The notes under the pieces: generated by a model
Databases searched by the model: none
Seen by the model: the letters and a program-made list of their open reading frames with translations, nothing else
Told to the model about the DNA's origin: nothing
Shown here: in pieces, positions 10,205-57,395 of the stretch
How positions within the stretch are numbered: the first letter of the stretch is position 1
How the letters are laid out: the number at the start of each line of letters is the position of its first letter
Origin: Minisyncoccota bacterium
GTDB lineage: Bacteria > Patescibacteriota > Minisyncoccia > Phycocordibacterales > PALSA-1337
Direction: 5' to 3'
Length of the DNA stretch: 64,000 nucleotides
NCBI GenBank assembly: GCA_036516895.1
Contig: DATDZD010000002.1
Location: forward strand, 13,769-77,768
Program-made: the position numbers and the translations under genes

Positions 10205-11284
10205 ATGACTGAAATAAAGAAGATAGAAAAATCTAGAGTAGAAATTACGGGTGTTATCTCAATTGAAGAATTTGAGAAATTCAGAAACCAAGCTCTCAAA
10301 AACATAAATGAAGAAGTAACCATAGATGGTTTCCGCAAAGGCAAAGTCCCAGAAAATATCCTTATTTCAAAAGTTGGAGAAATGACTATTCTAGAAGAGA
10401 TGGCTCAGCTTGCCATAAAAGAAGCTTATCCAAAAATAATTATCGATGAAAAAATTGACGCCATAGGTCAACCAGAAGTACATATTACAAAAATTGCCAA
10501 AGATAATCCTCTTGAATTCAAGATTGTCACGGCTATAGTGCCAGAAGTTAAACTTGGAGATTATAAGAAAATTATAGAGAAAGAAACAGGTAATGAGAAA
10601 AAAATAAAAGAAGACACAAAATCCGAGATAGAGAAAATTAGTGAACAAGAGATAGATGAAGCCATACTTCGTATTCGTCGTTCGCGAGCCGACCATAGTG
10701 GACATGACCATGAAAAGATGTCTGCCGAAGAACATGAGAAAGCTATTGACTCTTCCCTTCCAGAATTTACGGATGATTTTGTCAAGACTCTTGGCAGTTT
10801 CAAAGATATTAGAGACTTCAAAGAAAAATTGAGAATCATGCTTGTTGAGGAGAAAAAAGAAAAACAGAAAGAGAAAACAAGAATTACTATTTCAGATAAA
10901 CTCATAGAAAGCTCTACTATTGACCTCCCCGAAATACTTATTGAAAGTGAGTTGAGAAGAATGGAATCACAATTCTCTGACGATATTTCTAGAATGGGAG
11001 TAAAGATGGAAGATTATATTAAGCATGCAAAAAAATCCATGGAGGAGCTTTATAAAGATTGGAGACCTCATGCTGAGAAAAAAGCAAAGCTTCAGCTCAT
11101 ATTAAATAAAATCGCTAAAATTGAAAAAATAATAGTTGAACCAAAAGAAATAGAAGAACAAGTAGACGAGATAATGAAAAACCACAAAGACACTGACCAA
11201 GAACGCGCTACTGTATATATAGAAACCGTGCTCATGAATGAAAAAGTATTTCAGTTTTTAGAAAAGATTTCAAAGAGTAATTGA
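10205..11284 (+). CDS. tig: Trigger factor (short form)
   Basis: N-terminal ribosome-binding domain with the GFRKGKVP signature (IDGFRKGKVPENIL). 359 aa, shorter than the E. coli protein. Confidence 0.75.
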   Translation: MTEIKKIEKSRVEITGVISIEEFEKFRNQALKNINEEVTIDGFRKGKVPENILISKVGEMTILEEMAQLAIKEAYPKIIIDEKIDAIGQPEVHITKIAKDNPLEFKIVTAIVPEVKLGDYKKIIEKETGNEKKIKEDTKSEIEKISEQEIDEAILRIRRSRADHSGHDHEKMSAEEHEKAIDSSLPEFTDDFVKTLGSFKDIRDFKEKLRIMLVEEKKEKQKEKTRITISDKLIESSTIDLPEILIESELRRMESQFSDDISRMGVKMEDYIKHAKKSMEELYKDWRPHAEKKAKLQLILNKIAKIEKIIVEPKEIEEQVDEIMKNHKDTDQERATVYIETVLMNEKVFQFLEKISKSN

Positions 11285-11511: not shown

Positions 11512-12252
11512 TCAAAAAACCATCCTAGAAATTACCGCTACCACAGCTGTCTCTGCTCGCAATATTTGTGGTCCGAGAGAATATATAGGTACATTATTTT
11601 TCTTAAAGAGTTCTAGTTCTTGTTCTGTCCATCCCCCTTCTGGTCCTATATACGCTCCGATAATATTATTGACTACCCCACTATCTGACAAATTTTCCTT
11701 GGGCTCATTGTCTATACACACATCTTTTTCAGAAAATCTTGGGGCTTTGGGGTCCCAAGCAATTGATTTTACATTAGAATAATTTGATATGGCTTTTTTC
11801 AAATCCATCATTTCGTGAAGCTCAGGCAAAATTCCCCTTCCAGATTGCTCTGACGCTTCAATAATGATTTTTTGTAGACGATTTTTATTAAGACCCTTCT
11901 TTTCACTTCTATCAGAAATGATAGGAACAATATGCAATACTCCTAGTTCTGTAGCTTTTTCTACCACCCAGTCAAAATTGCTTTTCTTTAGAATTGAGGA
12001 AAAAAGGTAGGTTTCACGGCTTGTCTTTACATTATTTTCAATCTTTTCTATTATCTTCAGATAGACAATATCCTTCTCATACTTATCCACAGTAGCTATA
12101 AAATCAAACCCTGAATTATCAAAAATGACCACCTTATCCCCAATACTAAAGTGTAGAACATTCCTCATTTGATTGAAAAGCATGGGAGAGGAAATCATTA
12201 TATTCTTATTGTTATTTATAGGTATATCGTTATAAAATCTATGTAATTTCAT
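11512..12252 (-). CDS. rsmE: 16S rRNA (uracil1498-N3)-methyltransferase RsmE
   Basis: C-terminal motifs GAYIGPEGGWTEQE and LGPQILRAETAVVAVIS are typical of RsmE (SPOUT family). The start is taken at MKLHRF, the internal Met of the track ORF. Confidence 0.75.
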   Translation of the reverse strand: MKLHRFYNDIPINNNKNIMISSPMLFNQMRNVLHFSIGDKVVIFDNSGFDFIATVDKYEKDIVYLKIIEKIENNVKTSRETYLFSSILKKSNFDWVVEKATELGVLHIVPIISDRSEKKGLNKNRLQKIIIEASEQSGRGILPELHEMMDLKKAISNYSNVKSIAWDPKAPRFSEKDVCIDNEPKENLSDSGVVNNIIGAYIGPEGGWTEQELELFKKNNVPIYSLGPQILRAETAVVAVISRMVF

Positions 12253-12308
12253 ATATTTAGCATATACTACATTTGCCAAATGTAAAAGATTGTGTATTAT
12301 TTATAGAG

Positions 12309-12414
12309 TTATACACAGGTTTATCCACCGAGTTATAAACAGGTTACACACAGTTTATCCACTTATCCACATAAAGTTATCCACTTTTTGCAATATTATC
12401 CACAGTTATCCACA
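12309..12414 (+). promoter_or_regulatory. Array of about nine same-orientation DnaA-box-like 9-mers, three of them perfect TTATCCACA, spaced about 11 bp apart and followed by an AT-rich stretch immediately upstream of clpP
   Basis: Boxes start at about 12309, 12321, 12333, 12344, 12355, 12363, 12378, 12396 and 12406. The perfect copies are at 12363, 12396 and 12406. Confidence 0.5.
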
Positions 12415-12443
12415 GTTTTAATTAAAATTAAACCAAAAATACC

Positions 12444-13016
12444 ATGCTTATCCCCACAGTTATAGAGAAAACCAATTTTGGAGAACGCGCTTATGACATA
12501 TACTCACGACTTCTAAAAGAGAATGTGATATTTCTTGGAGGACCAATAGATGACCATATAGCTAATATTATCATCGCTCAACTTCTTTTTCTCCAATATG
12601 AAGACCCAAAGAAAGATATAAACCTTTATATAAACTCCCCTGGCGGTTCTGTCACTGCAACCCTTGCCATTGTAGACACGATGAACCATGTAAAAAATAA
12701 TGTCTCCACTACATGCGTGGGTATTGCGGCATCAGGAGCGGCACTTGTTCTTTCTGCTGGAACAAAAGGCAAACGTTTTGCTCTTCCAAATTCCGAAGTT
12801 ATGATTCATCAACCATTGGGAGGAGTGGAGGGACAAGCGTCAGATATAGAAATAAGCGCGAAACATATATTAAGAATAAGAGAGAATTTAAATAAAATAC
12901 TAGCCAAAAATACAGGGCAATCGCTTTCAAAGATAGAAAAAGATGTAGACCGTGACTTCTTTATGGATGCTGAAGAAGCGAAAAAATACGGATTGATTGA
13001 CAAGGTTGTGGCATAG
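12444..13016 (+). CDS. clpP: ATP-dependent Clp protease proteolytic subunit
   Basis: 190 aa with [32 protein letters not shown]...NSPGGSVTA...MIHQPLGG, the catalytic Ser and His context. Confidence 0.9.
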
Positions 13017-13182
13017 TTATACGATAGATATATTACTGGAATAATTTACTGTAATTTCGCTTTTTCGAAAACGTCTTAATGAATCATATTCTTATATCCA
13101 AATGAACATCTCACTTCAGTCAACTATACCGTATAAAGATACATTATTTTTGTAATCAAGAAAGGCGAATTTATATTCGCAT

Positions 13183-14712
13183 ATGTCATTAAAATTAGTA
13201 GCATTGCTTCTAGGGCTAGCCGGAACGGCAGGGCTTGGAATAGGATATTATCTTCGTCTCATAATCTCTTTAGGAAAAAAGGGTTCAATGGAGCTTGAAA
13301 TAAAAGAGATGATACTCACAGCAAGGGAAGAAACAAAGAAAATAATCACAGAGGCCGAATCAAAAGCAAATAAAATCTTGGAGGAAGCGCGTCAGGATAT
13401 AAAAGAGAAAGAGGAAAAAATACAACAATCCGAAACACGCCTTATTAAAAAAGAGGACATCCTTGACAATCGTCAAACAGACATTGACAAAGAGATTGAG
13501 CTTATAAAGACACGCGTAGCAGAAATAAAAACCATACGCGAAAAAACAGATAAAATACAAATAGAAAAAATAGAGACTCTGCAAAAAGTCGCCAATATGA
13601 GTATGGATGAAGCCAAAGACGAACTCATAAAAACTGTAGAAAAAAATGCAGAAAAAGACATCTTGACCAGGATTGCCAAATTAGAACAATCTGGTGAAGA
13701 AATTCTTGAAAACAAAGCCAAAGATATTTTGGCTATGTCCATTCAACGCCTTTCAAATTCAGTGGCGTCAGATATTATGTCCACTTCCATCACTATTCCA
13801 AATGATGAAATAAAAGGCAAAATCATAGGAAAAGAAGGCAGAAACATCAAAGCATTTGAAAGAATGACTGGGGTGGAAGTAATTGTAGACGATACCCCCG
13901 GAAATATTACAATATCATCATTTGACCCTATCAGACGCCATATAGCTAAAACAGCATTAGAAGAACTCATAAAAGACGGTCGTATTCAACCAGCAAAAAT
14001 AGAAAAGATGGTTCAAGAAGCCCAAGAAAGTATAAATAAAACAATAAAAGAAAAAGGTGAGCAAGCCGCTTATGAATGTGGCGTTATTGGCCTCGACCCT
14101 CGTATTTTGCTTATACTAGGACGGCTTCATTTTCGTACTAGTTATGGACAAAATGTTCTTCAGCATTCAATAGAGATGTCTCATATTGCTGGCATGATAG
14201 CCGAAGAGATAGGAGCCAATACAGCTGTAGCGAAAACCGGCGCTCTTCTCCATGATATTGGTAAAGCCCTTGACCATGAAGTAGTTGGGACTCATGTAGA
14301 AATAGGACGGAGGATATTACAGAAATTTGGAGCAAGTGAGGATATAGTAAAAGCAATGCAAGCGCATCATGAAGAATATCCTTATGAAACTGTTGAATCA
14401 CGCATAGTTCAATCTGCTGATGCTATTTCAGGAGCTAGACCAGGAGCTAGACGAGACAGTATAGAGAACTATTTAAGACGCTTGGGAGACCTTGAAGCGA
14501 TTGCAAATGGTTTTGAGGGTGTGGAAAAATCTTATGCCCTCCAAGCAGGACGAGAAATACGCATTTTTGTAACTCCAGAAGCTATTACCGACCTAGAAGC
14601 CAAAAATCTAGCTAGAGATATAGCCATAAAAATAGAAAAAGACCTAAAATATCCTGGCGAAATAAAAGTTACTGTTATACGAGAGACAAGGGCTATTGAA
14701 TTTGCCAGGTAA
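13183..14712 (+). CDS. rny: Ribonuclease Y
   Basis: N-terminal TM anchor, coiled coil, KH domain (GKIIGKEGRNIKAFERMTGVEVIVDD) and HD domain (LLHDIGKA...HHEE). Confidence 0.85.
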   Translation: MSLKLVALLLGLAGTAGLGIGYYLRLIISLGKKGSMELEIKEMILTAREETKKIITEAESKANKILEEARQDIKEKEEKIQQSETRLIKKEDILDNRQTDIDKEIELIKTRVAEIKTIREKTDKIQIEKIETLQKVANMSMDEAKDELIKTVEKNAEKDILTRIAKLEQSGEEILENKAKDILAMSIQRLSNSVASDIMSTSITIPNDEIKGKIIGKEGRNIKAFERMTGVEVIVDDTPGNITISSFDPIRRHIAKTALEELIKDGRIQPAKIEKMVQEAQESINKTIKEKGEQAAYECGVIGLDPRILLILGRLHFRTSYGQNVLQHSIEMSHIAGMIAEEIGANTAVAKTGALLHDIGKALDHEVVGTHVEIGRRILQKFGASEDIVKAMQAHHEEYPYETVESRIVQSADAISGARPGARRDSIENYLRRLGDLEAIANGFEGVEKSYALQAGREIRIFVTPEAITDLEAKNLARDIAIKIEKDLKYPGEIKVTVIRETRAIEFAR

Positions 14713-14728
14713 ACTATAATCATGTCTA

Positions 14729-14827
14729 GGTAAAATGGCTCGCCTGCTTGCGGTCGGAAGCACTTATTTTTGTCTCGCAAGCTCGAAAAAATAAGTCTTC
14801 CTCTCCGCAGCTCGCACGATTTTACTG
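14729..14827 (+). repeat. Intergenic imperfect-palindromic repeat, family copy A (about 99 bp) with conserved termini GGTAAAATGGCTCGC...GCTCGCACGATTTTAC
   Basis: Directly seen. It lies immediately downstream of the rny stop. There are nested inverted repeats (GCTTGCG/CGCAAGC and GGAAGCACTTATTTTT/AAAAAATAAGTCTTCC). It is homologous to the copies at 23562, 26795, 39388 and 43510. Confidence 0.6.
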
Positions 14828-14960
14828 GAAACTAAATATCTTGCATTATTTTGACTTATATGTTCCTATTTTTACCCCATTGCGTATAAAATGGCTTGTT
14901 ATATAATGATGTGGAGGTTATATACTGTTTCAGTTGATATTATTAATAATAACAATAAAT

Positions 14961-15233
14961 ATGAATAAAGTAGGAATTATAGACGCAGTCCACACAATAT
15001 TGGGTGGAACAAAGGTTCAAGCAGAGCAAGCTGTAGACACAATGTTAAATTCAATCATTGATTCTCTCAAAAGAGGAGAGGAGGTTTCTATAGCTGGACT
15101 TGGTATTTTCTCTGTAAAACAGAGAGCGGCGCGAGATGCTAGAAATCCTCGCACGGGAGAAGCTATAAAGGTAGCAGCTATGAAAGTGCCGAAGTTCCGA
15201 GCAGCAAAAGCTCTGAAGGATGCAGTAAAATAG
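14961..15233 (+). CDS. hup: DNA-binding protein HU
   Basis: 90 aa with the HU/IHF signature: MNKVGIIDAVHTILG..., GLGIFSVKQRAARDARNPRTGEAIKVAAMKVPKFRAAKALK. Confidence 0.85.
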   Translation: MNKVGIIDAVHTILGGTKVQAEQAVDTMLNSIIDSLKRGEEVSIAGLGIFSVKQRAARDARNPRTGEAIKVAAMKVPKFRAAKALKDAVK

Positions 15234-15405
15234 GGTCAAAAGTCAAAAATAAGGAGAATCAAATAGAAAATAAAAATCTTCAAGAAAATAATTCGCTCAA
15301 AAGAATTTTTATTAACAAAAAACCACCATAGTTGAAAAACTGGTGGTTTTTGCTTTAAGCAATGTATAATTATTAATACTGATTACTGAGATTAAAGAAT
15401 TGATA

Positions 15406-17009: not shown

Positions 17010-17396
17010 TTATAGAATAACATTTTCCATAAAAGTAACCTTTGCTCTTCTCGTTTTTTGGTCCATACGAACAACAATGACATGGAATTGAAATTCGGTA
17101 TCCAGCTTATACTTTCTCTCGAGCAAATAAGTCTGAACAGCTCTTTTAAGGCGTTTGCATTTAAGTTCATGGACATTTTCTTCTGGTCTATATTCATCTT
17201 TTGACCTATTATTTGTCTTTTTTACTATTATGCTTTTGACCTCAATGAAGTGGATTATGCCATCTTTTGCAACGATAATATCAATTTCACCCCACTTTTT
17301 GCTATAGTTTCTCTCAATAATAAGAAAATTATGCTTCTTTAGCCACTTACAAGCAATTTCCTCACCAATATCTCCTATAAGACGGTTATAAGCCAT
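17010..17396 (-). CDS. yraN: YraN/UPF0102 family endonuclease
   Basis: 128 aa. N-terminus [55 protein letters not shown] fits the UPF0102 signature (GE.D.I). Confidence 0.7.
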
Positions 17397-17408: not shown

Positions 17409-17448
17409 TTATACACATTGTCCACAGACTTATCCACAGTTATACACA
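17409..17448 (+). promoter_or_regulatory. Second phased array of DnaA-box-like 9-mers (TTATACACA, TTGTCCACA, TTATCCACA perfect, TTATACACA) at about 10-11 bp spacing
   Basis: Directly seen between the yraN start (17396, minus strand) and the tRNA-Gly(GCC) 3' end (17491). All four boxes share one orientation. Confidence 0.45.
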
Positions 17449-23561: not shown

Positions 23562-23659
23562 TAAAATCATGCGAGCATGCGGGGAGGAAACCCTATTTTT
23601 TCGAACCTGAGAGACAAAAATAAGTGCTTCCGACCGAAAGTAGGCGAGCTGATTTTACC
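23562..23659 (-). repeat. Intergenic palindromic repeat, family copy D in reverse orientation
   Basis: The reverse complement reads GGTAAAATCAGCTCGCCTACTTTCGGTCGGAAGCACTTATTTTTGTCTC...CCCCGCATGCTCGCATGATTTTAT. It lies between the NYN gene stop and the next gene start. Confidence 0.55.
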
Positions 23660-23670
23660 AAGATAAAAAA

Positions 23671-26770: not shown

Positions 26771-26794
26771 TAAAATCGTAAAAAATATCATCTA

Positions 26795-26966
26795 GGTAAA
26801 ATCGGCTCGCTTACTTGCGGTCGGAAGCACTTATTTTTGTCTCGCAAGCTCAAAAAAATAAATCTTCCTCCTTACAGGAGCGGTACACCTTTCGCATTTG
26901 ATTACAAATGCTCAAGGTCTTGCGAAAGCTTCGCTTTCTCACCCCGCAAGCTCGCACGATTTTACT
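26795..26966 (+). repeat. Intergenic palindromic repeat, family copy B (about 172 bp, carries an internal insertion)
   Basis: GGTAAAATCGGCTCGCTTACTTGCGGTCGGAAGCACTTATTTTTGTCTCGCAAGCTC...CCCGCAAGCTCGCACGATTTTACTT. It lies between the convergent comM and M23 peptidase genes. Confidence 0.6.
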
Positions 26967-33794: not shown

Positions 33795-33802
33795 AATAAC
33801 CC

Positions 33803-35707
33803 ATGAAAAAACACCTGCCTACAATTCTCACTTTGATGATAATCCTAGCAATAGGAGTAGCGATTTTGACTCCAAATATAGCCATGGCAACAGTTTCAGG
33901 AACCAGTATAGTTACAGGAGTCGGTGTAAGCGTGATAAATACAACCCTCGCAAACATTGGAAACGCCATTCTCGGCTGGACAGCCGTTCTTGTTACAGCA
34001 GGCGGAGCTTTCTTGAGTATGGCCATAAACCTCACTACCCATATAGACAAAATATATGAAACTGTATCAGGTATAAAATCCGTATGGGTTACGATAAGAG
34101 ATATATCTAGCATATTTATAATATTTGCTCTCTTATATTTCTCCATAAGGACAATATTGGGTTTTGGCGGTTATAGCACCACAGGCAATCTCAAGGGTCT
34201 TATAGTAAATATATTTATAGCCGGTCTTCTTATAAACTTCAGTCTTTTCTTCGTCAGAGTGGCTATTGACGCTTCAAATCTAGTCTCTTTGCAGTTCTAT
34301 AATGCTATTGCTCCCGATACTTCTAAAAACTGGAGCGTTGGAGATGTATTCAATAATGGCGGTCTCTCAAATGTGTTCATGCAGAGTCTCAAGATTCCGA
34401 CAATATACCAACAATCAAAGAGTTCACAAGGTTTTGATATAGCGGCTGGAATCGGTTTTGCTATCCTTGGAGGAATCATCATGATGGTTACTGCGGCTAT
34501 AAGCTTCTTCGCCGCTGCCATTGCTTTTACTGCTCGCACCGCTATTTTACTTTTTGTTATGGCTATGTCTCCTATATTCTTCGTGGGAATGATATTTCCG
34601 GAAGTAAAAAAGAAAGTGTCCGATAAAATTTCTGGTTTGCTTTATAGTCAATGTGTATTTATGCCTGTATACCTTTTTCTCATGTACATTGCTCTCAAAA
34701 TAATAAGTGATGAAAATTTCATGAAAATATTCAACCCAAATACTTCTGGAGTAGCCGATACAAATGGTTTTGGTCCTGTTTGGATAGGTATTATCATTCA
34801 ATATGCCATCGCCCTTATATTTATAAATATTCCACTAGTAGCGGCAATAGAAATGGGAGCAATCGGTATGAAATGGGCGCCCGGATCATCCGGAGCAAAT
34901 GCTGTAAATAAATGGCTTGGGGGAAAGATTGGGGGATTTGCTGGTAGGAATATTGCTGGTAGAGCTGGGCAGTTGTCTGGTGTGGGCTTTGATAGAATGG
35001 CAGCTTCAGCTCAAGGTTCTTCTCTTGGCAAAGGTACATCAACTGTTCTTCGCGCTCTTGGTATTAGTCAGGGAATTCGTGGCGGATTAACTGCTACAGA
35101 GAAAGGAAAATATGGTGGAACACAAAGTCTTGGTGATATTCAGAAGGAAAATAAGGAGAGGGCAAGAACTATTTCTGGGGTACAGAGAATGAAAGAACAA
35201 CATTTAGCTCTTGCAGCAGTCATTGGTTCAAAGAATACTTCAATAACACCAGCGCAAATGGATAAATTTAGAGAAACTGTGGATAAAATGGGTAATAAAG
35301 ATTTTGAAAATATGAATTTTGAAACCATTAAAGACCCTGTTCTTGCTTCTAACCTATCATCTAAACAAGCTGAATCATTATTGGAAGGAGATATACTTAC
35401 CTCGCAACAGAAAGACGAGTTCAAAAAAATACGAAAAGATAAGATTGTCACAATCATTAATTCTGGAACAGCAACAGATGCCGAAATACATATGAAAAAA
35501 TTATCAGGAAAAGAATTGTCTAAAATGGACAAGACTGTTATTAAGAATCCGAATGTCTTAAAATACTTAACCCCAACTCAACTATTAGAAATGAGAGATA
35601 TTGATGGAGATACTAAAAAATTCATTGGTGACTATATAGAAAATACTGCACTAGGAGACCATAAAGCAAAAGGTTATATAAGAAAAAATCGTACGGAGTG
35701 GAGCTAA
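33803..35707 (+). CDS. Polytopic membrane protein with a hydrophilic C-terminal domain, a VirB6/TrbL-like candidate
   Basis: 634 aa with at least 7 hydrophobic helices in the first 360 aa, then a soluble C-terminal half. The architecture and position upstream of VirB3-like and VirB4 genes resemble Gram-positive VirB6 analogues. This is architecture-based inference only. Confidence 0.4.
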   Translation: MKKHLPTILTLMIILAIGVAILTPNIAMATVSGTSIVTGVGVSVINTTLANIGNAILGWTAVLVTAGGAFLSMAINLTTHIDKIYETVSGIKSVWVTIRDISSIFIIFALLYFSIRTILGFGGYSTTGNLKGLIVNIFIAGLLINFSLFFVRVAIDASNLVSLQFYNAIAPDTSKNWSVGDVFNNGGLSNVFMQSLKIPTIYQQSKSSQGFDIAAGIGFAILGGIIMMVTAAISFFAAAIAFTARTAILLFVMAMSPIFFVGMIFPEVKKKVSDKISGLLYSQCVFMPVYLFLMYIALKIISDENFMKIFNPNTSGVADTNGFGPVWIGIIIQYAIALIFINIPLVAAIEMGAIGMKWAPGSSGANAVNKWLGGKIGGFAGRNIAGRAGQLSGVGFDRMAASAQGSSLGKGTSTVLRALGISQGIRGGLTATEKGKYGGTQSLGDIQKENKERARTISGVQRMKEQHLALAAVIGSKNTSITPAQMDKFRETVDKMGNKDFENMNFETIKDPVLASNLSSKQAESLLEGDILTSQQKDEFKKIRKDKIVTIINSGTATDAEIHMKKLSGKELSKMDKTVIKNPNVLKYLTPTQLLEMRDIDGDTKKFIGDYIENTALGDHKAKGYIRKNRTEWS

Positions 35708-36417
35708 AATATTTTAAAATTATGGATAATCAAAATACACAAAACTTACCTGCAGATATTCTCAAAGCGATTGAGTCTTCTGATGTCTATACTCATCTTG
35801 AAAGTATAGGGGATAGATACAATCTTCTTATTGATCAAATTGGTCAATTAAATGCTGATACAGAAAAATTAATGGTTGGGAAATTAAAATCAGAGATATT
35901 TGTAATCACCATCGCAAAAGATTTGGAAATATCACAAGAAATAGCACAAAAAATATCTGACGATATCAATAATGAGATATTTACTGGTCTTCGTGAATCT
36001 CTTCGTAAAATGCAGGAACAGAGTGAAAAAAAATTCACAAACCCGCTCACACCTCCACCTCCTCCTACTTTCCAAATCCCTAAACCAGTACCACTAACAC
36101 CAACCACTCCTATACCCAAACCGCCGATTACTCAACCTCCTCAAAAAATAAACATCTCTTCAATAGAAAAAGTCGGCAACTTTACCATTGAAAAACGCCC
36201 ATTATCAAATTCCCCCCAATATAAAGATACAAACTTAAAAAGAGAAGATGTTTTGAGGGATATGGAAAACCCAACAACAAAGAGTGGTGTATCTTTTGTA
36301 GACCATCTCCTCTCCAAGCCATTATCAAATGAAATGCAAACAGAAACAAAAAATAAAACCGCTCCTCCACAAGGTTTGCCAGAATATACAGCCGACCCAT
36401 ATAGAGAGCCCATATAG
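35698..36417 (+). CDS. Hypothetical proline-rich protein
   Basis: PPPPTFQIPKPVPLTPTTPIPKPPITQPPQK low-complexity linker. No TM segment. Confidence 0.35.
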   Translation: MELKYFKIMDNQNTQNLPADILKAIESSDVYTHLESIGDRYNLLIDQIGQLNADTEKLMVGKLKSEIFVITIAKDLEISQEIAQKISDDINNEIFTGLRESLRKMQEQSEKKFTNPLTPPPPPTFQIPKPVPLTPTTPIPKPPITQPPQKINISSIEKVGNFTIEKRPLSNSPQYKDTNLKREDVLRDMENPTTKSGVSFVDHLLSKPLSNEMQTETKNKTAPPQGLPEYTADPYREPI

Positions 36418-36435
36418 TAATGCTATAATAAACCC

Positions 36436-36864
36436 ATGCGTTTTCAAGTCCCACAGTTCATTGAAGTAGAAGATAAAATTTTCGGGCCATTAACCCTGAA
36501 ACAATTCATATATCTTGCCGGGGGAGCGGGACTTTCTTTTGTCATATATCAATCCCTCGGCTCTCTTGTATTGGCATTCTTGCCTATCACCATCATCATG
36601 TCTTTTTCTTCAGCATTGGCCTTTTATAAAATAAACAATAAGCCCTTCATTTTCGTCGTTGAAGCGGCATTCAAATACTTTTTCTCAAGCAAATTGTATA
36701 TATGGAAAAAAGGGGAGAACAGCAAAGCGTTGTCAAAATCAGATTCGGAAGCAAAACAATACGCCTCTGTCATGGTTCCAAAAATTTCAGATAGCAAACT
36801 AAAGGATTTGACATGGAGCTTGGATATAAAAGAGAGCATGTACACAGATAGAAATCAAAAATAA
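36436..36864 (+). CDS. Small two-TM membrane protein, VirB3-like candidate
   Basis: 142 aa with a hydrophobic hairpin LAGGAGLSFVIYQSLGSLVLAFLPITIIMSF. It lies directly upstream of the VirB4-like ORFs. Confidence 0.35.
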   Translation: MRFQVPQFIEVEDKIFGPLTLKQFIYLAGGAGLSFVIYQSLGSLVLAFLPITIIMSFSSALAFYKINNKPFIFVVEAAFKYFFSSKLYIWKKGENSKALSKSDSEAKQYASVMVPKISDSKLKDLTWSLDIKESMYTDRNQK

Positions 36865-36865
36865 T

Positions 36866-37498
36866 ATGGCTACGAGTCAAAAAACAACTCAAGATTTTGT
36901 ACCGATACGAGAAATACGCGACGGTGTTGTCATATTGAAAGATGGTTCAATGCGCGCTTTGGTATTGGCTTCGTCTCTCAATTTCGCCTTGAAATCAACC
37001 GATGAACAAAACGCCATAATTCTTCAATTTCAAAATTTCCTCAACTCTCTTGACTTCTCTGTGCAGATTTTCGTCCAGTCAAAAAAGCTTGATATAAGGC
37101 CGTATATTGCTCTACTTGAAGAACGATACAAGGAGCAAGTGACTGAACTTATGAAAATACAAACCAGAGAATACATAGAGTTTATAAAGACTTTCGTGGA
37201 AAATTCCAATATTATGACAAAAAGTTTCTTTTTGATAGTGCCTTACATGCCCCCAACGCTTACTGCAAGCAAAAATCCGGTCAGCAATCTCTTTAATAAA
37301 AAAACTGAAGATAAAACAGTTATAAACGCAGAATTTGAAGAATACAGAAGCCAGCTGGAACAGAGGGTGGGGGTAGTAGAGCAGGGTTTGGTCAGATGCG
37401 GAATAAGGGTGGCGGAACTTGGAACAGAGGAGGTGGTAGAATTGTATTATAAAATATTCAACCCCGGAGAAACAGAGAAACCGATACAGATAAACTGA
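36866..37498 (+). CDS. VirB4 N-terminal-domain-like protein (first part of a split VirB4)
   Basis: DFVPIREIRDGVVILKDGSMRALVLASSLNFALKSTDEQNAIILQFQNFLNSLDFSVQIFVQS resembles the N-terminal region of Gram-positive VirB4/ConE ATPases. The 210 aa here plus the 613 aa of the next ORF approximate full-length VirB4. Confidence 0.4.
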   Translation: MATSQKTTQDFVPIREIRDGVVILKDGSMRALVLASSLNFALKSTDEQNAIILQFQNFLNSLDFSVQIFVQSKKLDIRPYIALLEERYKEQVTELMKIQTREYIEFIKTFVENSNIMTKSFFLIVPYMPPTLTASKNPVSNLFNKKTEDKTVINAEFEEYRSQLEQRVGVVEQGLVRCGIRVAELGTEEVVELYYKIFNPGETEKPIQIN

Positions 37499-37545
37499 TT
37501 ATTCACCAGAAAATCTCCACATAAACAAATAAAAACAATAAAAAA

Positions 37546-39387
37546 ATGAGTATATTTAGCAAATTATTAGGAAAAAAAGAACAAGAAAAGCCAATCGTTT
37601 CTCTTATGCCACAAGAGATATATGAAGCTGGCATCTTGGAACTCAAAGATGTCATTGCCCCTTCGGCTCTCAAAATAAGCCCTAAAGAAATAAACCTTGG
37701 AGAAAAGGTGGCTAGAACATTTTTTGTTATATCCTATCCACGCTTTCTTTCTGAAAGCTGGTTTGCTCCTATTATAAATCTTGATAAAGTCTTCAATATT
37801 TCTATTTTCATCCATCCAGTAGACACCGCAAAAATACTTCGTCATTTCCAAAAGAAAGTAGCGGAGGTCCAAAGCCAAATATCACAAAGAGAAGATAAGG
37901 GTTTAGTGCGGGACCCTATGCTTGATACCGCCTACCAAGACCTTGAGGTGCTCCGAGACAGCTTGATGCAAGCACAAGAAAAGATATTTGATGTTGGCGT
38001 ATACATCACTCTATATGGAGACTCTAGTGCAGAGCTTGATAAAACAGAGTCAGAAATAAAATCCATCCTGGAATCAAAGCTCGTATACATAAAGCCCGCT
38101 CTCTTTCAACAGGAAAGTGGGTACAGAAGCGTTCTTCCTATTGCCAATGATGAGCTAGCGGTGCACTCAAAGCTCAATTCTTCTCCTCTTTCTTCTCTCT
38201 TTCCTTTCGTTTCTTTTGACCTAACATCAGACAAAGGAATTCTCTACGGAATCAATCGCCACAACTCGTCTCTTGTACTTTTTGATAGATTTCTCTTGGA
38301 AAATTACAATTCTGTAACATTTGCAAAAGCTGGAGCGGGAAAATCATACTGCACAAAGCTGGAAATACTCCGTACTCTTATGTTTGACACAGATGTCATT
38401 GTTATAGACCCGGAAAAAGAATACGAGTACATGGCAGAAGCCACTGGAGGAAAATATTTTAATATTTCTCTAAATTCAGAACATCATATCAACCCTTTTG
38501 ACCTTCCTATTCCTAGAGAAGACGAGTCGGCTATAGATGTCCTTCGTTCAAACATTATCAATCTTGTCGGACTCTTTCGCATAATGCTCGGAGGTCTATC
38601 CCAAGAAGAAGACGCTATTATAGACCGAGCTATTACAGAGACATACGCTCTCAAAGATATTACAGCAGAATCAAACTTCAGAAATGTTGAACCGCCACTT
38701 CTATCCGACTTTGAGCTTGTTTTGGCGGGTATGGAAGGAGCCGAATCGCTTGTAGAACGACTGACAAAGTATACAAAAGGCACATGGTCGGGCTTTATAA
38801 ACCGTCCTTCAAATGTTGATATAAACAAAAAATTCGTGGTTTTTTCACTTCGCGATATGGAAGACGAACTCAAACCAGTAGCAATGTATATTGTTACTCA
38901 CTATATCTGGAACGCTATACGCAAACAGCTTAAAAAACGCCTTTTGGTCATAGATGAAGCATGGTGGATGATGAAATCAGAAGATACGGCTTCATTTCTA
39001 CTCGGTCTGGCAAAAAGAGGTCGCAAATACTATCTAGGTCTAGCCACAATCACCCAAGATGTTGATGATTTTCTCAAATCTCCGTATGGTTTGCCTATTA
39101 TTACAAATTCTTCAATTCAAATACTCCTCAAACAATCTCCTTCATCAATAGACAATATCCAAAGAACTTTCAACTTAACAGACGAAGAAAAATATCTTCT
39201 CATTGAATCGGATGTGGGGGAGGGAATATTCTTTGTCGGGCTAAAGCATGTAGCCATAAAAGTCGTAGCCTCATATACAGAAGACCAGATTATTACCACA
39301 AACCCCGCCCAGGTCATGGCAATTCAGCAAGCAAAGAAAGATTTGGAAATGAGTCATGCGATGACGGAGAAAGAAGTGTCAGTATAA
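37546..39387 (+). CDS. VirB4/TraC/TrbE-family conjugation-type ATPase (C-terminal part)
   Basis: Walker A TFAKAGAGKSYCTKLE, Walker B RLLVIDEAWWMM, and a conserved ITQDVDDF region typical of VirB4. Confidence 0.7.
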   Translation: MSIFSKLLGKKEQEKPIVSLMPQEIYEAGILELKDVIAPSALKISPKEINLGEKVARTFFVISYPRFLSESWFAPIINLDKVFNISIFIHPVDTAKILRHFQKKVAEVQSQISQREDKGLVRDPMLDTAYQDLEVLRDSLMQAQEKIFDVGVYITLYGDSSAELDKTESEIKSILESKLVYIKPALFQQESGYRSVLPIANDELAVHSKLNSSPLSSLFPFVSFDLTSDKGILYGINRHNSSLVLFDRFLLENYNSVTFAKAGAGKSYCTKLEILRTLMFDTDVIVIDPEKEYEYMAEATGGKYFNISLNSEHHINPFDLPIPREDESAIDVLRSNIINLVGLFRIMLGGLSQEEDAIIDRAITETYALKDITAESNFRNVEPPLLSDFELVLAGMEGAESLVERLTKYTKGTWSGFINRPSNVDINKKFVVFSLRDMEDELKPVAMYIVTHYIWNAIRKQLKKRLLVIDEAWWMMKSEDTASFLLGLAKRGRKYYLGLATITQDVDDFLKSPYGLPIITNSSIQILLKQSPSSIDNIQRTFNLTDEEKYLLIESDVGEGIFFVGLKHVAIKVVASYTEDQIITTNPAQVMAIQQAKKDLEMSHAMTEKEVSV

Positions 39388-39567
39388 GTAAAATCGTGCG
39401 AACATCCGTATATATCAGGTGTGGAGAGAATACTTTCTTTTTCCGGGTACGAGAATTTTTTACTAAAAATTCTCTCAAGTCCTCGCGCCGACGCGCTCGG
39501 AAGCCCCTCCAAAAGAAGTATTCTCTCCACACCTAGCATACAATAAAGAATGCGAGTCAATTTTACC
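39388..39567 (-). repeat. Intergenic palindromic repeat, divergent family copy E (about 180 bp, reverse orientation)
   Basis: It starts GTAAAATCGTGCGA and ends GCGAGTCAATTTTACC. The internal part is itself a long palindrome (GGTGTGGAGAGAATACTTCTTTT ... AAAAGAAGTATTCTCTCCACACC). It lies directly after the VirB4 stop. Confidence 0.5.
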
Positions 39568-39572
39568 AAAAC

Positions 39573-39989
39573 ATGAACATGGATGAACAAAACAAAGAAA
39601 ACAGAATAGGAACAATAGCTATATTAGTCCTTATTTTCGTATCCGGTCTAGCTGACGCAGGAACATTAATCCCTTTTGTGGGCGACTTCGTAAGCCCTTT
39701 GTTTTGGACATGTATGACATACTATCTTTACAAGATAAAACATGGGCTTCTAAATTGGAAAATATTTGCTCCGAGTATTGTCTCTTTTGTATCGGAATTT
39801 ATCCCTGTAGTGCAAGCATTCCCAACAATTATAGGCGCTACTATAGCCATAATATTTGTATCCCGACTTGAAGATAAGACTGGAATATCTCTAATGAAAC
39901 CCTTATCGCAAGGTCAGAAAGTTCACTTACCCAGCAGAACACCACCTCTTAATCAAGGCGGAATAAGGCAACCAAGAAATATATTATAA
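39573..39989 (+). CDS. Hypothetical small membrane protein
   Basis: 138 aa with 2-3 hydrophobic helices. Confidence 0.4.
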   Translation: MNMDEQNKENRIGTIAILVLIFVSGLADAGTLIPFVGDFVSPLFWTCMTYYLYKIKHGLLNWKIFAPSIVSFVSEFIPVVQAFPTIIGATIAIIFVSRLEDKTGISLMKPLSQGQKVHLPSRTPPLNQGGIRQPRNIL

Positions 39990-40018
39990 TAGTCAGAATT
40001 TATGATAAAATATAGCAA

Positions 40019-41068
40019 ATGAAATCTCGCACAAAAATACTATTGAAAACTACACTGAATATCTTCTATGTTACATTTTTTACAATAATTTTTTCTTTTA
40101 TATTTGTCATATCTATTCACGCCCAAATTCCCAACTCTATTGATGGTGTAGAGATTGGCTCTGACCCAGAAAATCCCAATCCGGGACAAAATGTAACCGT
40201 GAGTGTAGAGAGTTATAATACAGACTTGAATTCTGCTTCTGTTGTTTGGCTTGTAAATGGCAAGAATTATGCTCAAGGTACTGGTTTGAAATCTGTGAGT
40301 GTTTCTGCGCCGTCTTTGGGTAAAAATACAAGTATTGTGACAATTATTATGACCGCCGAAGGAAAGGAGGTCAGAAAATCAATAACAATAAAATCAGGGT
40401 CAGTAGATTTAGTATGGGAAAGTGAAGGTTATATTCCACCTTTTTACAAAGGCAAAGCGGTTTTCGCCTATGAAAATCTTGTCAAAATAACTGCCATGCC
40501 ACACCTTTCTAATAATGAAAGTGCAGAATTGGACTCTCGCACTCTAATATATAAATGGAAAAAGAATGACAAGGTAGTCCTAGATCAGTCTGGCTATGGA
40601 AAACAAACTCTGATTATAAAAGAAGATATTCCTAGACCTATTGATATAGAATTGGAAGTAACAACAAAGAATGGCAGTCAAAAGGGTGTGGCGTTTATAA
40701 CTCTTCAGCCGGGAGAGCCATCAATCTCTTTCTATGAAGAAGACCCTCTCTATGGAGTGTTATACAATAAAGCTATTATTAACAGAATCAGTCTTTCAAA
40801 TCAAGAAATAAATATCCGTGCTGTGCCATATAATTTTACTTCATACGCCAAAAACTCTCCTTTGACCTATTCTTGGAGTATAAATAATCTTCTTCAGCCA
40901 GAACTTTCCACAAACCAGAGTATTATCTTGAGAACAAGAGGGGATACAGAAGGAAGTTCGGCTATTTCTCTTGAAGTTAGAAATACAGATGACATACTTC
41001 AAGGAGCACGCAATACCATAGATGTATTATTTAATAAAAGACCAATAGAAAGCAGTGTGGCCTTTTGA
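40019..41068 (+). CDS. Hypothetical secreted or membrane-anchored beta-rich protein
   Basis: 349 aa with an N-terminal TM/signal (IFYVTFFTIIFSFIFVISIHA) and repetitive beta-strand-like sequence. Confidence 0.45.
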   Translation: MKSRTKILLKTTLNIFYVTFFTIIFSFIFVISIHAQIPNSIDGVEIGSDPENPNPGQNVTVSVESYNTDLNSASVVWLVNGKNYAQGTGLKSVSVSAPSLGKNTSIVTIIMTAEGKEVRKSITIKSGSVDLVWESEGYIPPFYKGKAVFAYENLVKITAMPHLSNNESAELDSRTLIYKWKKNDKVVLDQSGYGKQTLIIKEDIPRPIDIELEVTTKNGSQKGVAFITLQPGEPSISFYEEDPLYGVLYNKAIINRISLSNQEINIRAVPYNFTSYAKNSPLTYSWSINNLLQPELSTNQSIILRTRGDTEGSSAISLEVRNTDDILQGARNTIDVLFNKRPIESSVAF

Positions 41069-41077
41069 TAAAAAGAA

Positions 41078-42226
41078 ATGAAAAAAATAATTTCTTACAA
41101 TTTCATAATGCTCATATATCTCGCTATAATCTTTGGTTCTAGCATAAATATTTCTCATGCTCAAAATACATACAAACTTCTTGAGCCGTTGCCCAATATA
41201 ATGGGCACTGGGCAAAAAGGTGAGTGTGTTGATGAAAAAAATAAAACTATAACTTGTATAAACCTTGAAACTTATGTGGGCTATGTCTTCAAACTAGCTA
41301 TAGCTCTTGCTGTATTTTTGGCAGTGGTAGTCCTCATATATGGCGGTTTTGAATACATGCTAGGCGAAGCCATAGGTACCAAAGCTGCCGCAAAATCAAG
41401 AATGACAAATGCCATTTATGGGCTTCTTGGAGCGTTGGTTTCATATTTGATATTGGTCACAATAGACCCAAGATTGGTGCAGATAAATACGAATATTCCG
41501 GAGATAAATATTAAAATAGATAGAGAAACTGCGAATTTTCAGAAGCAGTTAAGTAATGATTTGAACAATATGTCAGGAGAATCAAGATTGAAGGTAATAG
41601 AAGCTACAAATAAGATAAAGGAGCTTGAAAAAGAAAGAGGTGGTGTTATGCAAAAACTTGGTTCAGGTACCAGTATTGAAAACGAAAATTATGTAAAAGA
41701 ATTGGCTAGAATTGACCAGGAAATCAAAGAGAATAAATCTACAGTAATAACAGAGTCGGCCAAATCATTAGGGTCAAGCCAGTTTGGTAAGATTTTTGAT
41801 GTAATTCGTACTCCTCAAAACTATAATGCGACTTCCTTAAAGATTACAGACGAAGCTCAAGGAGTTATAGATAGTAACAGAAATACTATTGTTAAAAACT
41901 ATGATGATTATGCAAAACAGCTTGATGAGATTCAAGAGTATGAAAAAGCTAGAGAAGTTAGAACGACAAAAGAATTTCTTTTAGATCAAATAAAACAGGA
42001 ACAGGAATTGCGTGGGATGATTAATCACTATAATCACGAAGACCCTATCAAAAAACCTTATTGGGAAAAACAAATGAGAGATCTACTTGCAAAATATGCC
42101 AGTCCACCAAAAGACGAGATGGTTAATAAATATAGAAATTATCCTGATATATTAACTCAATATAATGAATATAAGACTGTCCGAGCAAACATAATTAGTC
42201 AAACCCTAAAACCCCCAGGAAAATAA
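41078..42226 (+). CDS. Hypothetical protein with a signal peptide, a hydrophobic helical hairpin, and a long coiled coil
   Basis: Signal MKKIISYNFIMLIYLAIIFGSSINISHA, then Cys-containing segment, then two TM helices (VFKLAIALAVFLAVVVLIY...LLGALVSYLILVTI). This is a VirB2/TrbC-like topology at the N-terminus. Confidence 0.4.
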   Translation: MKKIISYNFIMLIYLAIIFGSSINISHAQNTYKLLEPLPNIMGTGQKGECVDEKNKTITCINLETYVGYVFKLAIALAVFLAVVVLIYGGFEYMLGEAIGTKAAAKSRMTNAIYGLLGALVSYLILVTIDPRLVQINTNIPEINIKIDRETANFQKQLSNDLNNMSGESRLKVIEATNKIKELEKERGGVMQKLGSGTSIENENYVKELARIDQEIKENKSTVITESAKSLGSSQFGKIFDVIRTPQNYNATSLKITDEAQGVIDSNRNTIVKNYDDYAKQLDEIQEYEKAREVRTTKEFLLDQIKQEQELRGMINHYNHEDPIKKPYWEKQMRDLLAKYASPPKDEMVNKYRNYPDILTQYNEYKTVRANIISQTLKPPGK

Positions 42227-42227
42227 T

Positions 42228-43487
42228 ATGACCAAAAAAATAATTTTCATCTTCATGCTCATTATTCTCCTCGCCGGAGGCGTGTATTACTTTTTTTTCT
42301 ATCAGAGCAAGCCCATGTCACTTACCGATACAGCAGAAGCTCCTCCAACAGGATTCAGTCCTATAAACCGCTCTAGTGTTGCTACACCAAAAAATACAAC
42401 ACCATCAGCAACAAGCACCCCCAGACAGAATACAGTAACGGAGCAAGCAAGAATACCAGCCCTACGCCACTTGAGCACAACCCCTGTAGGTGGCTTCATG
42501 GCAAGCTCTACAGCCAGTTCTACAGTGGTTCGTTATGTGGATAGGGGAGTAGGTCATATATACGAATCTTTAAGTACAAAGAACGAAATAAAAAAGATAT
42601 CAAATACCACAATTCCTCGTATATATGAAAGTTATTGGAATAAAAACCTAAATACTGCCATTTTTAGATACATGAAAGACGAGACAGATACAATAGCAAA
42701 TTTCTATGCTGAAATAAGACCAATCAAAACATCAACCAGCACTTTAGAAACAATAAATGAAGTAAATAGCGAAATAAAAGGAAAATTCATATCTTCGGAT
42801 ATAAAAGAAATAGCTGTCTCTCCAAAAAAAGACCGTGTTTTCACTTTCAATATAGAAAATGGAAGAGGGATAGGGTATATCTCTGGTTTTGATGAAAGTA
42901 AAAAGACAAAAATCATTGACATACCTATTACTCAAGTCAATATAGAGTGGCCAGAAGAAAATACTCTTGCAATTACAACAAAATCATCCGGTGTATCATC
43001 TGGATATTTATATCTAATAGACATAAAAAAACCATCTCTCAAAAAAATACTGGGCGGGATTACAGGTTTGAATGCAAAGGTAAGTCATGACGCAAAGAAA
43101 ATACTTTTCTCATCTAGCAATTCAAAGGGATTTGCGATGAGTATATACAATATAAAAGATTCTTCTACACAAGAAATGGTCTTTAGAACTACCGCTGACA
43201 AATGCGTATGGAGCAAAATTCGCCCAAACGAACTTTATTGCTCCGTCCCAGTAGAATTCCCAGCAGGAATGTATCCTGATGATTGGTACAAGGGGGTAAT
43301 ATCATTTGCAGACCAGATATGGCAATTAGACACAACGACAGGAGAAGTGCATCTTATGGCAAATCTTTTGAAAATTTCTGATGAACTTATTGATGCTGTA
43401 GACCTGACTCTAGACCCGAAAGAAGACTATTTATTCTTTGTAAATAAAAGAGATTTGACTCTTTGGTCGCTGGATTTGAATAGATAA
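42228..43487 (+). CDS. Hypothetical membrane-anchored protein with a Ser/Thr-rich linker and a beta-propeller-like C-terminal region
   Basis: 419 aa with an N-terminal TM helix. No catalytic motif recognised. Confidence 0.4.
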   Translation: MTKKIIFIFMLIILLAGGVYYFFFYQSKPMSLTDTAEAPPTGFSPINRSSVATPKNTTPSATSTPRQNTVTEQARIPALRHLSTTPVGGFMASSTASSTVVRYVDRGVGHIYESLSTKNEIKKISNTTIPRIYESYWNKNLNTAIFRYMKDETDTIANFYAEIRPIKTSTSTLETINEVNSEIKGKFISSDIKEIAVSPKKDRVFTFNIENGRGIGYISGFDESKKTKIIDIPITQVNIEWPEENTLAITTKSSGVSSGYLYLIDIKKPSLKKILGGITGLNAKVSHDAKKILFSSSNSKGFAMSIYNIKDSSTQEMVFRTTADKCVWSKIRPNELYCSVPVEFPAGMYPDDWYKGVISFADQIWQLDTTTGEVHLMANLLKISDELIDAVDLTLDPKEDYLFFVNKRDLTLWSLDLNR

Positions 43488-43509
43488 AATTATGCAAAAT
43501 TATTGTTTA

Positions 43510-43617
43510 GGTAAAATCAGCTCGCCTACTTGCGCTCGGAAGCTCTTTTATTTGTTCTCCGCCTGCTGGCGGATAAAAATAAAAGACTTCCTCACCGCAG
43601 GCTCGCACGATTTTACT
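43510..43617 (+). repeat. Intergenic palindromic repeat, family copy C
   Basis: GGTAAAATCAGCTCGCCTACTTGCGCTCGGAAGCTC...CACCGCAGGCTCGCACGATTTTACT. It lies between convergent genes (the 42228 gene and yidC). Confidence 0.6.
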
Positions 43618-44992: not shown

Positions 44993-45152
44993 ATTTTACC
45001 TAGACATTATTTTAATTTATCTTGTAGTTTTATTTTTCCACAGGTTATCAACATACTTATAAACTTTCCACAAGTTCTTTACTTTTTAAAGAAGTATATA
45101 CTACTAATACTATTTTATTTATTTTTATCATCATCATAAAAATCTCATAAAA
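44993..45152 (+). promoter_or_regulatory. AT-rich dnaA upstream region with degenerate DnaA boxes (TTTTCCACA, TTATCAACA, TTTCCACAA), an oriC candidate part
   Basis: Directly seen. It lies between the divergent rpmH and dnaA genes and ends in a very AT-rich stretch before the dnaA ATG. Confidence 0.4.
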
Positions 45153-46499: not shown

Positions 46500-46716
46500 A
46501 TTGTGGATATTGTGTGGAAAGATACTGTATTTATGTGTATAACTTTAGATAAAAATATGATAAATAAAAAACTTATAGAAGATATTAGAAGTAATTCAAA
46601 AATTATCAACAATTTAATTATTAAAATATATTTAAAAATATCGGTTTAAAAAAGTTATCCACATATCCACAGGACTAATAATAGTAATAAGTATTAATAT
46701 AAATTAAATTAAAAAT
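46500..46716 (+). promoter_or_regulatory. dnaA-dnaN intergenic AT-rich region with tandem DnaA boxes (TTATCCACA perfect, ATATCCACA), an oriC candidate part
   Basis: The sequence aaaaGTTATCCACATATCCACAGGact sits within a 217 bp spacer of more than 80% A+T. Confidence 0.45.
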
Positions 46717-57296: not shown

Positions 57297-57395
57297 TTTG
57301 TTATATTGTTATGACAATAATATGCTTATTTATCAAGGATACTATAGAAATCGTTATAATACAAGGATTAAAGTGTGGATAAGTGTTGTTATGTA

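Follow-up and report, generated by a model that had tools for sequence, protein, structure and literature searches.

A dense, same-orientation cluster of DnaA boxes between a predicted clpP promoter and the clpP start codon in a Minisyncoccota genome

Described DnaA-box clusters and the array upstream of clpP

The DnaA-box clusters of Bacillus subtilis are said, following work by Okumura and colleagues in 2012, to restrain initiation jointly. Eight regions of this chromosome are stably bound by DnaA, six of them outside oriC, and the binding is at dense intergenic box clusters (Ishikawa et al. 2007, PMC2533591). The clusters outside oriC (yqeG-sda, ywlC-ywlB, yydA-yycS, gcp-ydiF, ywcI-vpr and thdF-jag) hold 4-10 boxes in 44-96 bp, are mostly near oriC and are stably occupied by DnaA (PMC2533591); the consensus used for them is TTATNCACA (Ishikawa et al. 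2007, PMC2533591). DnaA acts as a repressor of ywlC and yydA and as an activator of sda, and between species the clusters are patchily conserved (PMC2533591).

In Escherichia coli, datA is a non-origin DnaA-box cluster fairly close to oriC that could lower active DnaA after initiation. Kasho and Katayama are said to have found, in 2013, that datA needs an IHF site and stimulates ATP hydrolysis on DnaA. Within E. coli oriC, the low-affinity sites of R1-tau-I and R4-C reportedly have 2-bp gaps, as attributed to Rozgaja and co-workers in 2011. These weak-site arrays fill from strong anchor boxes. The BUS of oriC comprises a box pair, DnaA-trios and an A+T-rich region (Richardson 2016/2019; Pelliciari 2021, PMC8287927), and the published trio test looks for 3'-[G/A]A[T/A]-5', at least three times, within 16 bp of a box.

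The window, that is, the whole 64,000-nucleotide stretch of DNA analysed here, encodes ClpP, RsmE and DnaA proteins whose best matches are in uncultured Patescibacteria/Parcubacteria (Paceibacterota) MAGs. To our knowledge, CPR bacteria, including the Parcubacteria, remain uncultivated, their genomes are small and poor in recognisable regulators, and almost nothing is known of how their replication and gene expression are controlled. Literature searches found no paper describing a link between DnaA boxes and clpP, and nothing on DnaA-box clusters in Patescibacteria.

Scanning the window for TTATCCACA-like 9-mers with at most two mismatches located nine at 12309-12414, all on the + strand: three perfect, four with one mismatch and two with two. 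They start at 12309 (TTATACACA), 12321 (TTATCCACC), 12333 (TTATAAACA), 12344 (TTACACACA), 12355 (TTATCCACT), 12363 (TTATCCACA, perfect), 12377 (TTATCCACT), 12396 (TTATCCACA, perfect) and 12406 (TTATCCACA, perfect). This recount agrees with an earlier note on this DNA, which had reported nine boxes in 106 bp (three perfect, the rest with 1-2 mismatches) in one orientation, just upstream of clpP and about 33 kb from dnaA; the array ends 29 bp before the clpP ATG (12444) and is 32.7 kb from dnaA, with the dnaA/dnaN origin region 32.7-34 kb away. Compared with TTATNCACA, four of the nine boxes are exact matches and the other five differ by one mismatch. The half nearer the predicted promoter (12309..12363, + strand) contains five imperfect boxes with 1-2 mismatches, the last of which forms, with the perfect box at 12363, an overlapping pair with an 8-bp offset (12355..12371, + strand, TTATCCACTTATCCACA). 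The strongest sites, two perfect boxes in tandem 10 bp apart, are those nearest clpP (12396..12414, + strand, TTATCCACAgTTATCCACA).

Further boxes on the + strand lie outside the array at 12083 (perfect) and 12134 (one mismatch), both within rsmE, and a tenth box, TTATCCCCA, occupies clpP codons 2-4 (12448-12456), where relatives have TTATACCAA; with these flanking sites, the same-strand boxes span 12083-12456. The interval 12240-12460 is 100% identical across eight independent assemblies from different samples, so the array is not an assembly artefact. These assemblies are nearly clonal: since their flanks are equally similar (99.6-100% identical over 2-12 kb), the identity of the array among them is silent on constraint, and the population data are too shallow to show any constraint on the array.

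The density of the boxes is well beyond expectation. The window as a whole contains 48 sites with at most one mismatch, as against 20.4 +/- 4.3 in shuffled sequence, and seven of the 48 lie within ~100 nt on one strand, where arithmetic from the shuffle mean gives ~0.016; the earlier claim that the array is no chance occurrence is thereby upheld. The array is the densest DnaA-box cluster in the window, every other 150-bp stretch holding four boxes at most. The start-to-start intervals are 12, 12, 11, 11, 8, 14, 19 and 10 bp, such that the regular spacing of about 11 bp previously described applies to the first five boxes and not to the rest. The boxes reach a phase coherence of R=0.69-0.74 for a period of 10.5-11 bp, and when nine sites were packed at random into the array's own span, 12.6% of packings reached the same coherence (p ~0.13). 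The helical phasing that had been proposed is therefore not significant, and is mostly a consequence of box density.

By analogy, the B. subtilis clusters appear to be the closest precedent for the array. Like them, it is dense and intergenic, lies near oriC and beside promoters, and is patchy between species; it has the size of such a cluster (nine boxes in 106 bp, compared with 4-10 in 44-96 bp) and fits their general definition, in which four to five or more boxes that differ from TTATNCACA by no more than one mismatch are packed into less than ~100 bp of intergenic DNA near oriC. In contrast to the B. subtilis clusters, its boxes all point one way, are packed more tightly and lie in the predicted transcribed leader of clpP, and it belongs to a Parcubacterium (CPR), whose genome is small. 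The array also resembles the weak-site arrays of E. coli oriC in having same-orientation 9-mers with 2-3 bp gaps and consensus boxes as anchors, from which ATP-DnaA could extend from strong to weak sites. The E. coli arrays are accompanied by a DUE, whereas this one has no DUE-sized A+T tract, trio run or skew switch. In general terms it would be reasonable to regard it as a DnaA oligomerisation array, and it is probably best filed as a lineage-specific addition to the known class of non-origin DnaA-box clusters, one that stands out because its boxes are so dense, share a single orientation and sit between clpP and a conserved promoter.

Position of the replication origin

The evidence places the origin at dnaA-dnaN and not at the array. 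The genes in this region are yidC (43624-44370, - strand), rnpA (44380-44715, - strand), rpmH (~44717-44851, - strand, read directly), dnaA (45153-46499, + strand) and dnaN (46717-47823, + strand). Between rpmH and dnaA is a cluster of boxes (45034..45133, + strand; boxes at 45034, 45045, 45064 and 45125) that corresponds to the oriC1/dnaA-promoter side of a canonical origin region. The spacer between dnaA and dnaN ends in AAAAAAGTTATCCACATATCCACAGGACTAATAATAGTAATAAGTATTAATATAAATTAAATTAAAAATATG and contains the probable oriC unwinding module (46655..46716, + strand): a tandem box pair with an 8-bp offset (TTATCCACAtATCCACA), a short G-containing spacer (GGA), the triplets CTA ATA ATA GTA ATA and an A+T-rich run to the dnaN ATG. 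The five consecutive xTA triplets (46675-46689) are on the box strand and read 3'-xAT-5' on the other. This layout fits the published unwinding modules of B. subtilis and C. difficile. Over 70 bp, the module is nearly invariant in three relatives with DnaA proteins 83-88% identical (L098, L099 and L100), in which the remaining spacer is beyond alignment, and the window reaches its highest A+T content within 46541-46716, whichever scale between 30 and 150 bp is used.

Strand composition points to the same place. Because raw GC skew over all positions was too noisy in 2-kb windows, skews were taken at third codon positions instead and expressed on the + strand, which cancels the effect of gene orientation. 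To the left of 45 kb, genes have pooled skews of -0.070 (GC3) and +0.087 (AT3), and to the right of 47.9 kb they have +0.077 and -0.047, respectively. The best step falls at 44.0-49.4 kb and beats all 2000 permutations of gene order (p<1/2000); the result holds when 9 kb are added from a contig of the same species (L101, 22 mismatches over a 12.6-kb overlap), for a total of 73 kb of genome examined. The switch at dnaA runs from G<C to G>C, which is the direction of an origin and not of a terminus. Across 12.4 kb there is no change of sign (GC3 -0.104 to -0.058; AT3 +0.075 to +0.091). Among the three relatives, the local GC3 sign change is as expected in L099 and L100 and not in L098, and the support for the skew from relatives is only moderate.

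According to the earlier note, replication might start at the array, as the true origin or as part of a bipartite one, rather than next to dnaA. An origin function of the array, whether as the true origin, as an additional one or as one half of a bipartite pair, is highly improbable. What speaks for such a role is that the array is the densest box cluster in the window, that its overlapping pair (12355..12371) has the same 8-bp offset as the oriC pair (46655-46671), and that a short A+T-rich stretch follows it. In addition, the top strand after box 9 reads GTT TTA ATT AAA, in which three NTN triplets satisfy the most lenient published trio rule, (.A.){3,}; this rule is easily satisfied by chance in A+T-rich DNA, only one of the three fits [C/T]T[A/T], and no run of xTA trios comparable to that at 46675-46689 follows the array. 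The array resembles a BUS in its tandem boxes and the shared pair offset, and differs from the conserved BUS of this genome in having three NTN triplets, no xTA and only a 29-bp leader.

That A+T-rich stretch occupies 12415..12443 on the + strand, between the array and the clpP ATG. It had been put at more than 85% A+T; the figure is 82.8%, over just 29 bp, which is in the 96.5th percentile of 30-bp windows, with values in the 66th-82nd percentile at scales of 60-150 bp, and is ordinary for this genome. Because these last 29 bp (TTTTAATTAAAATTAAACC...) align with the short clpP leaders of two relatives (L016 and L017), the stretch is the ancestral clpP leader, and not an unwinding element or one of DUE size. 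An origin at the array is further contradicted by the conserved dnaA-dnaN module and by the skew sign switch at 44-49 kb, with none at 12.4 kb; moreover, the array is missing from all relatives except the closest. Bipartite origins are not known to have halves 33 kb from dnaA; theirs lie on either side of the gene, within ~1-2 kb of it. The conserved module, the A+T maximum, the skew switch and the match to published layouts thus place the origin at dnaA-dnaN. Whatever the function of the array, the densest DnaA-box cluster of a genome need not be its origin, a point that matters for automated origin prediction in MAGs.

Domain IV of the DnaA of this genome keeps KPRQ...FPSIG...GGRDHTTV. Since these canonical base-contacting motifs are retained, the canonical box should be the target of this DnaA, and the type of box found in the array is also used at the genome's own dnaA-dnaN module.

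The clpP leader and its possible control by DnaA

The local gene order is H+-PPase, tig (10205-11284, + strand), rsmE (11512..12252, - strand, a 16S rRNA methyltransferase gene divergent from clpP), the array, clpP (12444..13016, + strand, 190 aa, Pfam CLP_protease 1.8e-82) and rny (13183-14712, + strand). The predicted clpP promoter, TTGCCA-16-TATTAT (12273..12300, + strand), is the best sigma-70-type match in the spacer, agreeing with the consensus at 10 of 12 positions. From this consensus prediction the transcript would start near 12307 and carry the array at ~+2 to +108. Orthologous promoters (TTGCCAAAT...TATTAT/TATGAT/TATCAT) are present in five relatives (L002, L016, L017, L014 and L095). 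The distance from the end of the -10 element to the clpP ATG is 6-49 nt in relatives and 143 nt in the window, the extra DNA being the array. In many relatives the predicted -10 element ends 6-7 nt before the ATG, which implies that their clpP mRNAs may be leaderless.

A structured RNA leader or riboswitch was rejected: the clpP leader lacks stable RNA structure (MFE -10.8 kcal/mol, z=+0.61 versus shuffles) and matches no Rfam family at the gathering score, a result that favours a role of the array at the DNA level. An iteron or plasmid origin was likewise rejected, as the repeat units are of 8-12 bp, there are no plasmid-type direct repeats of 17-22 bp and no rep gene next to the array, and the neighbours are rsmE, clpP, rny and tig.

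We consider it somewhat probable that the array is a recent, lineage-specific, non-origin DnaA-box cluster that functions as a putative clpP operator and as a DnaA sink. DnaA would first bind the three perfect boxes on the clpP side; given plentiful ATP-DnaA, it would then spread cooperatively across the 2-3 bp gaps over the weaker boxes toward the promoter, giving a same-orientation oligomer over ~+2 to +108 of the transcribed leader. Such an oligomer could be a roadblock or operator, with high DnaA leading to less clpP transcription, and the 9-12 sites, at 33 kb from oriC, would in addition tie up part of the cellular DnaA. Binding by DnaA, its cooperative spread, the direction in which clpP responds and any influence on when initiation occurs are all inferred from sequence features. 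That direction depends on the promoter used: a weaker promoter-like site, TCCACA-18-TAAAAT (12399..12428, + strand), matches the consensus at 9 of 12 positions and has its -35 element within boxes 8 and 9, and given this site (a consensus match only) the array might serve as an upstream element and not as a roadblock. The two fall-backs to an origin that the earlier note had offered, DnaA control of clpP and DnaA titration, both fit this anatomy and remain the best explanations: the array is dense, separates the conserved promoter of clpP from its ATG, and is 33 kb from oriC.

It seems unlikely that the array is purely a sink, comparable to the B. subtilis clusters or functionally to datA, that titrates or inactivates DnaA once the nearby origin has fired and whose position in the clpP leader is incidental. 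The very high box density at 33 kb from oriC is what would be expected of a sink (the high-affinity clusters of Bacillus are mostly near oriC), as are the additional same-strand boxes, which widen the binding zone to 12083-12456, and the fact that relatives run clpP without the array. However, 9-12 sites make a small sink, and the array, unlike the oriC module, is not conserved in the clade. With the array between promoter and ATG, titration would also be inseparable from interference with transcription, and sink and operator look alike in sequence. A datA-type mechanism in particular is at odds with the absence of an IHF-type consensus in or beside the array (WATCAANNNNTTR has no match at 11769-15392), as datA requires one. 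The array and datA are alike in being non-origin clusters fairly close to oriC that could reduce the pool of active DnaA; datA has fewer boxes over a longer region, and there is no sequence relationship between the two. An HU-family gene is present at ~14961-15233.

The divergent gene offers another possible target. A promoter-like TTTACA-16-TATGCT reads toward rsmE (12286->12259, - strand), with a predicted start that coincides with the rsmE ATG, and the array is 23-128 bp upstream of its -35 element. Read along the rsmE coding strand, the boxes appear as TGTGGATAA, in the same relative orientation as the conserved boxes before yraN (see below), and the two boxes in the 5' coding region of rsmE are conserved in the closest other species. 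An activating or repressing role at the rsmE promoter nevertheless has against it that the strongest boxes are farthest from rsmE and nearest clpP. Binding of another protein with a similar repeat would have to be reconciled with a repeat consensus that is the canonical DnaA box, used also at the genome's own oriC, and with the lack of a 17-22 bp iteron-type unit or rep gene. Either of these possibilities is improbable, and would be less parsimonious than a role of DnaA at clpP.

If DnaA does gate clpP, the locus would be a compact, datable case of a new DnaA-regulated gene or sink formed by tandem repeat expansion, and would provide a testable link between initiation and proteolysis.

Distribution among relatives and origin of the array

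At most one box is found in the 320 bp before clpP in 80 of 80 related species (ClpP 69-91% identical), many of which have the same tig-rsmE-clpP-rny synteny. The rsmE-clpP spacers (51-100 bp) of L001, L002, L095, L096 and L097 have no boxes. Among other ClpP relatives, the clpP spacers of P0121 and P0130 are 47-63 bp in gene maps, and those of P0123 and P0253 are short and box-free in the DNA itself. In all, more than 80 related species lack the array, and it follows that clpP has no general need for it. A metagenome scan with RsmE recovered distant homologues only (24-35% identity) and no close relatives, and a scan of viral contigs for the tandem perfect pair gave only pairs or short box runs on seven unrelated contigs.

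The nearest other species among 5.8 billion proteins is L094 (RsmE 68% identical; the next best is 58%), which is represented by a 2-kb contig and is ~20% diverged at the DNA level. Its contig has the promoter TTGCCA-16-TAATAT followed by TTATCAATAgagTTATCCACT at the same positions, where the contig ends; as far as it reaches, the first two array boxes are therefore common to both species in position, and both boxes within rsmE (12083 and 12134) are kept as well. The shared start suggests that the array, or at least its beginning, is older than the split of the two species and otherwise a lineage-specific gain. Such retention of the start across a species split speaks for the reading as operator and sink.

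The repeat structure of the array points to tandem expansion as its probable source, since TRF detects tandem units of 8, 10 and 11 bp: GTTATACACAG at 12308-12362, TTATCCAC at 12355-12370 and TTATCCACAG at 12396-12417. Expansion of one 10-12 bp box unit by slippage could also have been neutral or nearly so, leaving an array to which DnaA may bind without any selected function. The tandem units, the restriction to one lineage, a phasing no better than that of dense packing and the near clonality of the eight sampled genomes, in which constraint is not in evidence, are all compatible with such a history, which we nonetheless judge quite unlikely. The units in the 5' half have diverged (69% matches), yet all nine boxes remain within one mismatch of TTATNCACA, suggesting that boxes have been maintained rather than left to decay. 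The start of the array and both rsmE boxes also persist in a species ~20% diverged (L094), and a DnaA oligomer on the leader would be unlikely to be phenotypically silent.

A more specific proposal is that tandem expansion of boxes converted a near-leaderless clpP into a gene gated by an ATP-DnaA filament, coupling the level of the main processive protease to the state of initiation; we put this forward as a doubtful but conceivable outcome. If it were true, and if ClpXP or ClpCP degraded DnaA or a regulator of initiation, a feedback loop between initiator and protease would be closed. Together with the conserved boxes at yraN, it would also make DnaA a major transcription factor in reduced genomes that are poor in regulators.

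The yraN boxes form a second non-origin cluster of 4-5 boxes (17409..17448, + strand), immediately before the start of yraN/UPF0102 (17010-17396, - strand). Boxes orthologous to these (TTTATAAACAGTATCCCCAnnnTTATCCACAG and variants) are found at the same position in L001, L002, L008 and L095, for at least five species in all, and in 1.25 Mb of related loci there are three clusters of at least three boxes, two of which are this yraN site. This conservation suggests that the clade maintains DnaA boxes at a promoter outside the origin and that DnaA may be used as a transcription factor at yraN, and it makes a regulatory role of the clpP array more credible. The window thus combines a canonical Bacillus-like origin at dnaA-dnaN with two non-origin clusters, one conserved (yraN) and one apparently created recently (clpP). 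The tandem perfect boxes of the array (12396..12414) are 95% identical to 17430-17448 in the yraN cluster, a match too short to prove copying. The yraN cluster itself sits downstream of a tRNA gene.

DnaA boxes outside the clpP array

A second cluster of DnaA boxes is found at window positions 17409-17448, directly upstream of yraN/UPF0102, with a tRNA gene on one side and the yraN ATG on the other. Orthologous clusters are present in contigs of related species (L001, 8916-8952; L002, 6430-6478; L008, 4745-4790; L095, 14738-14768), and the number of boxes ranges from three to five across species. Both the position and the sequence of this cluster are kept in at least five species of the clade; in contrast, the array upstream of clpP is without such conservation. 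The yraN cluster is probably a DnaA-regulated promoter.

Perfect TTATCCACA boxes occur 11 times in the 64-kb window, against approximately 0.8 expected on both strands as estimated from base composition. Six are isolated, lying outside the clusters: five on the minus strand (2881, 20618, 27930, 35278, and 57374) and one on the plus strand (12083). The box at 57374 is 78 bp upstream of a gene for a TrmB-family regulator (56538-57296, minus strand).

A one-mismatch box, TTATCCCCA, is located within the clpP coding sequence itself (12448-12456, codons 2-4; CTT ATC CCC ACA), 42 bp past box 9 of the array. The Leu-Ile-Pro-Thr that it encodes is identical in the ClpP proteins of relatives, but the codons there read CTTATACCAACA, which is not a box.

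The 10-bp unit TTATCCACAG of the clpP array is also found as tandem perfect DnaA boxes in seven unrelated IMG/VR viral contigs; most stand in twos or threes, and a single run is longer and degenerate (examples include L106, 1934-1964; L107, 8430-8460; L110, 6920-6949; and L108, 682-735).

Predicted promoters of clpP and rsmE

When the 60 nt upstream of clpP were inspected, the predicted promoter -10 was found to end 6-7 nt before the ATG in many relatives (L014, L020, L022, L023, L026, L027, L030, and L095). The same close spacing is observed in the window at a promoter-like site for the divergent gene rsmE (12259-12286, minus strand). Because the predicted -10 lies this near to the ATG, leaderless mRNAs for both genes appear to be common in the clade.

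Secretion-like cluster, repeats, and ribozyme match

A type IV secretion (T4SS)-like cluster (approximately 33800-43490) is located directly upstream of yidC-rnpA-rpmH-dnaA. Synteny with relatives (L098, L099, and L100 1-8700) suggests that it includes PrgI, TraC-like, and VirB4/TraG P-loop genes; a weak match to a T4SS pilin is present at 41078-42226. This arrangement is consistent with that published for Patescibacteria, in which T4SS genes are placed next to dnaA (PMC12102498).

An intergenic repeat of approximately 100 nt is sited just downstream of genes at 14725-14826 (+), 23562-23664 (-), 26791-26966 (+), and 43508-43617 (+), with partial matches at 39385-39401 and 44993-45007. The repeats share 88-94% identity and contain internal inverted repeats (for example, 14749-14771 paired with 14787-14809). 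No Rfam family matches them; they may be terminator-like, REP- or MITE-like elements, or small RNAs.

A match to the Rfam ribozyme family Hammerhead_3 is present at 58973-59027 (+); its bit score of 49.4 (E=7.6e-08) narrowly exceeds the family's gathering score, 48.5. The surrounding G+C content (0.43-0.44) is above that of the rest of the window, and the segment could be mobile or of foreign origin.
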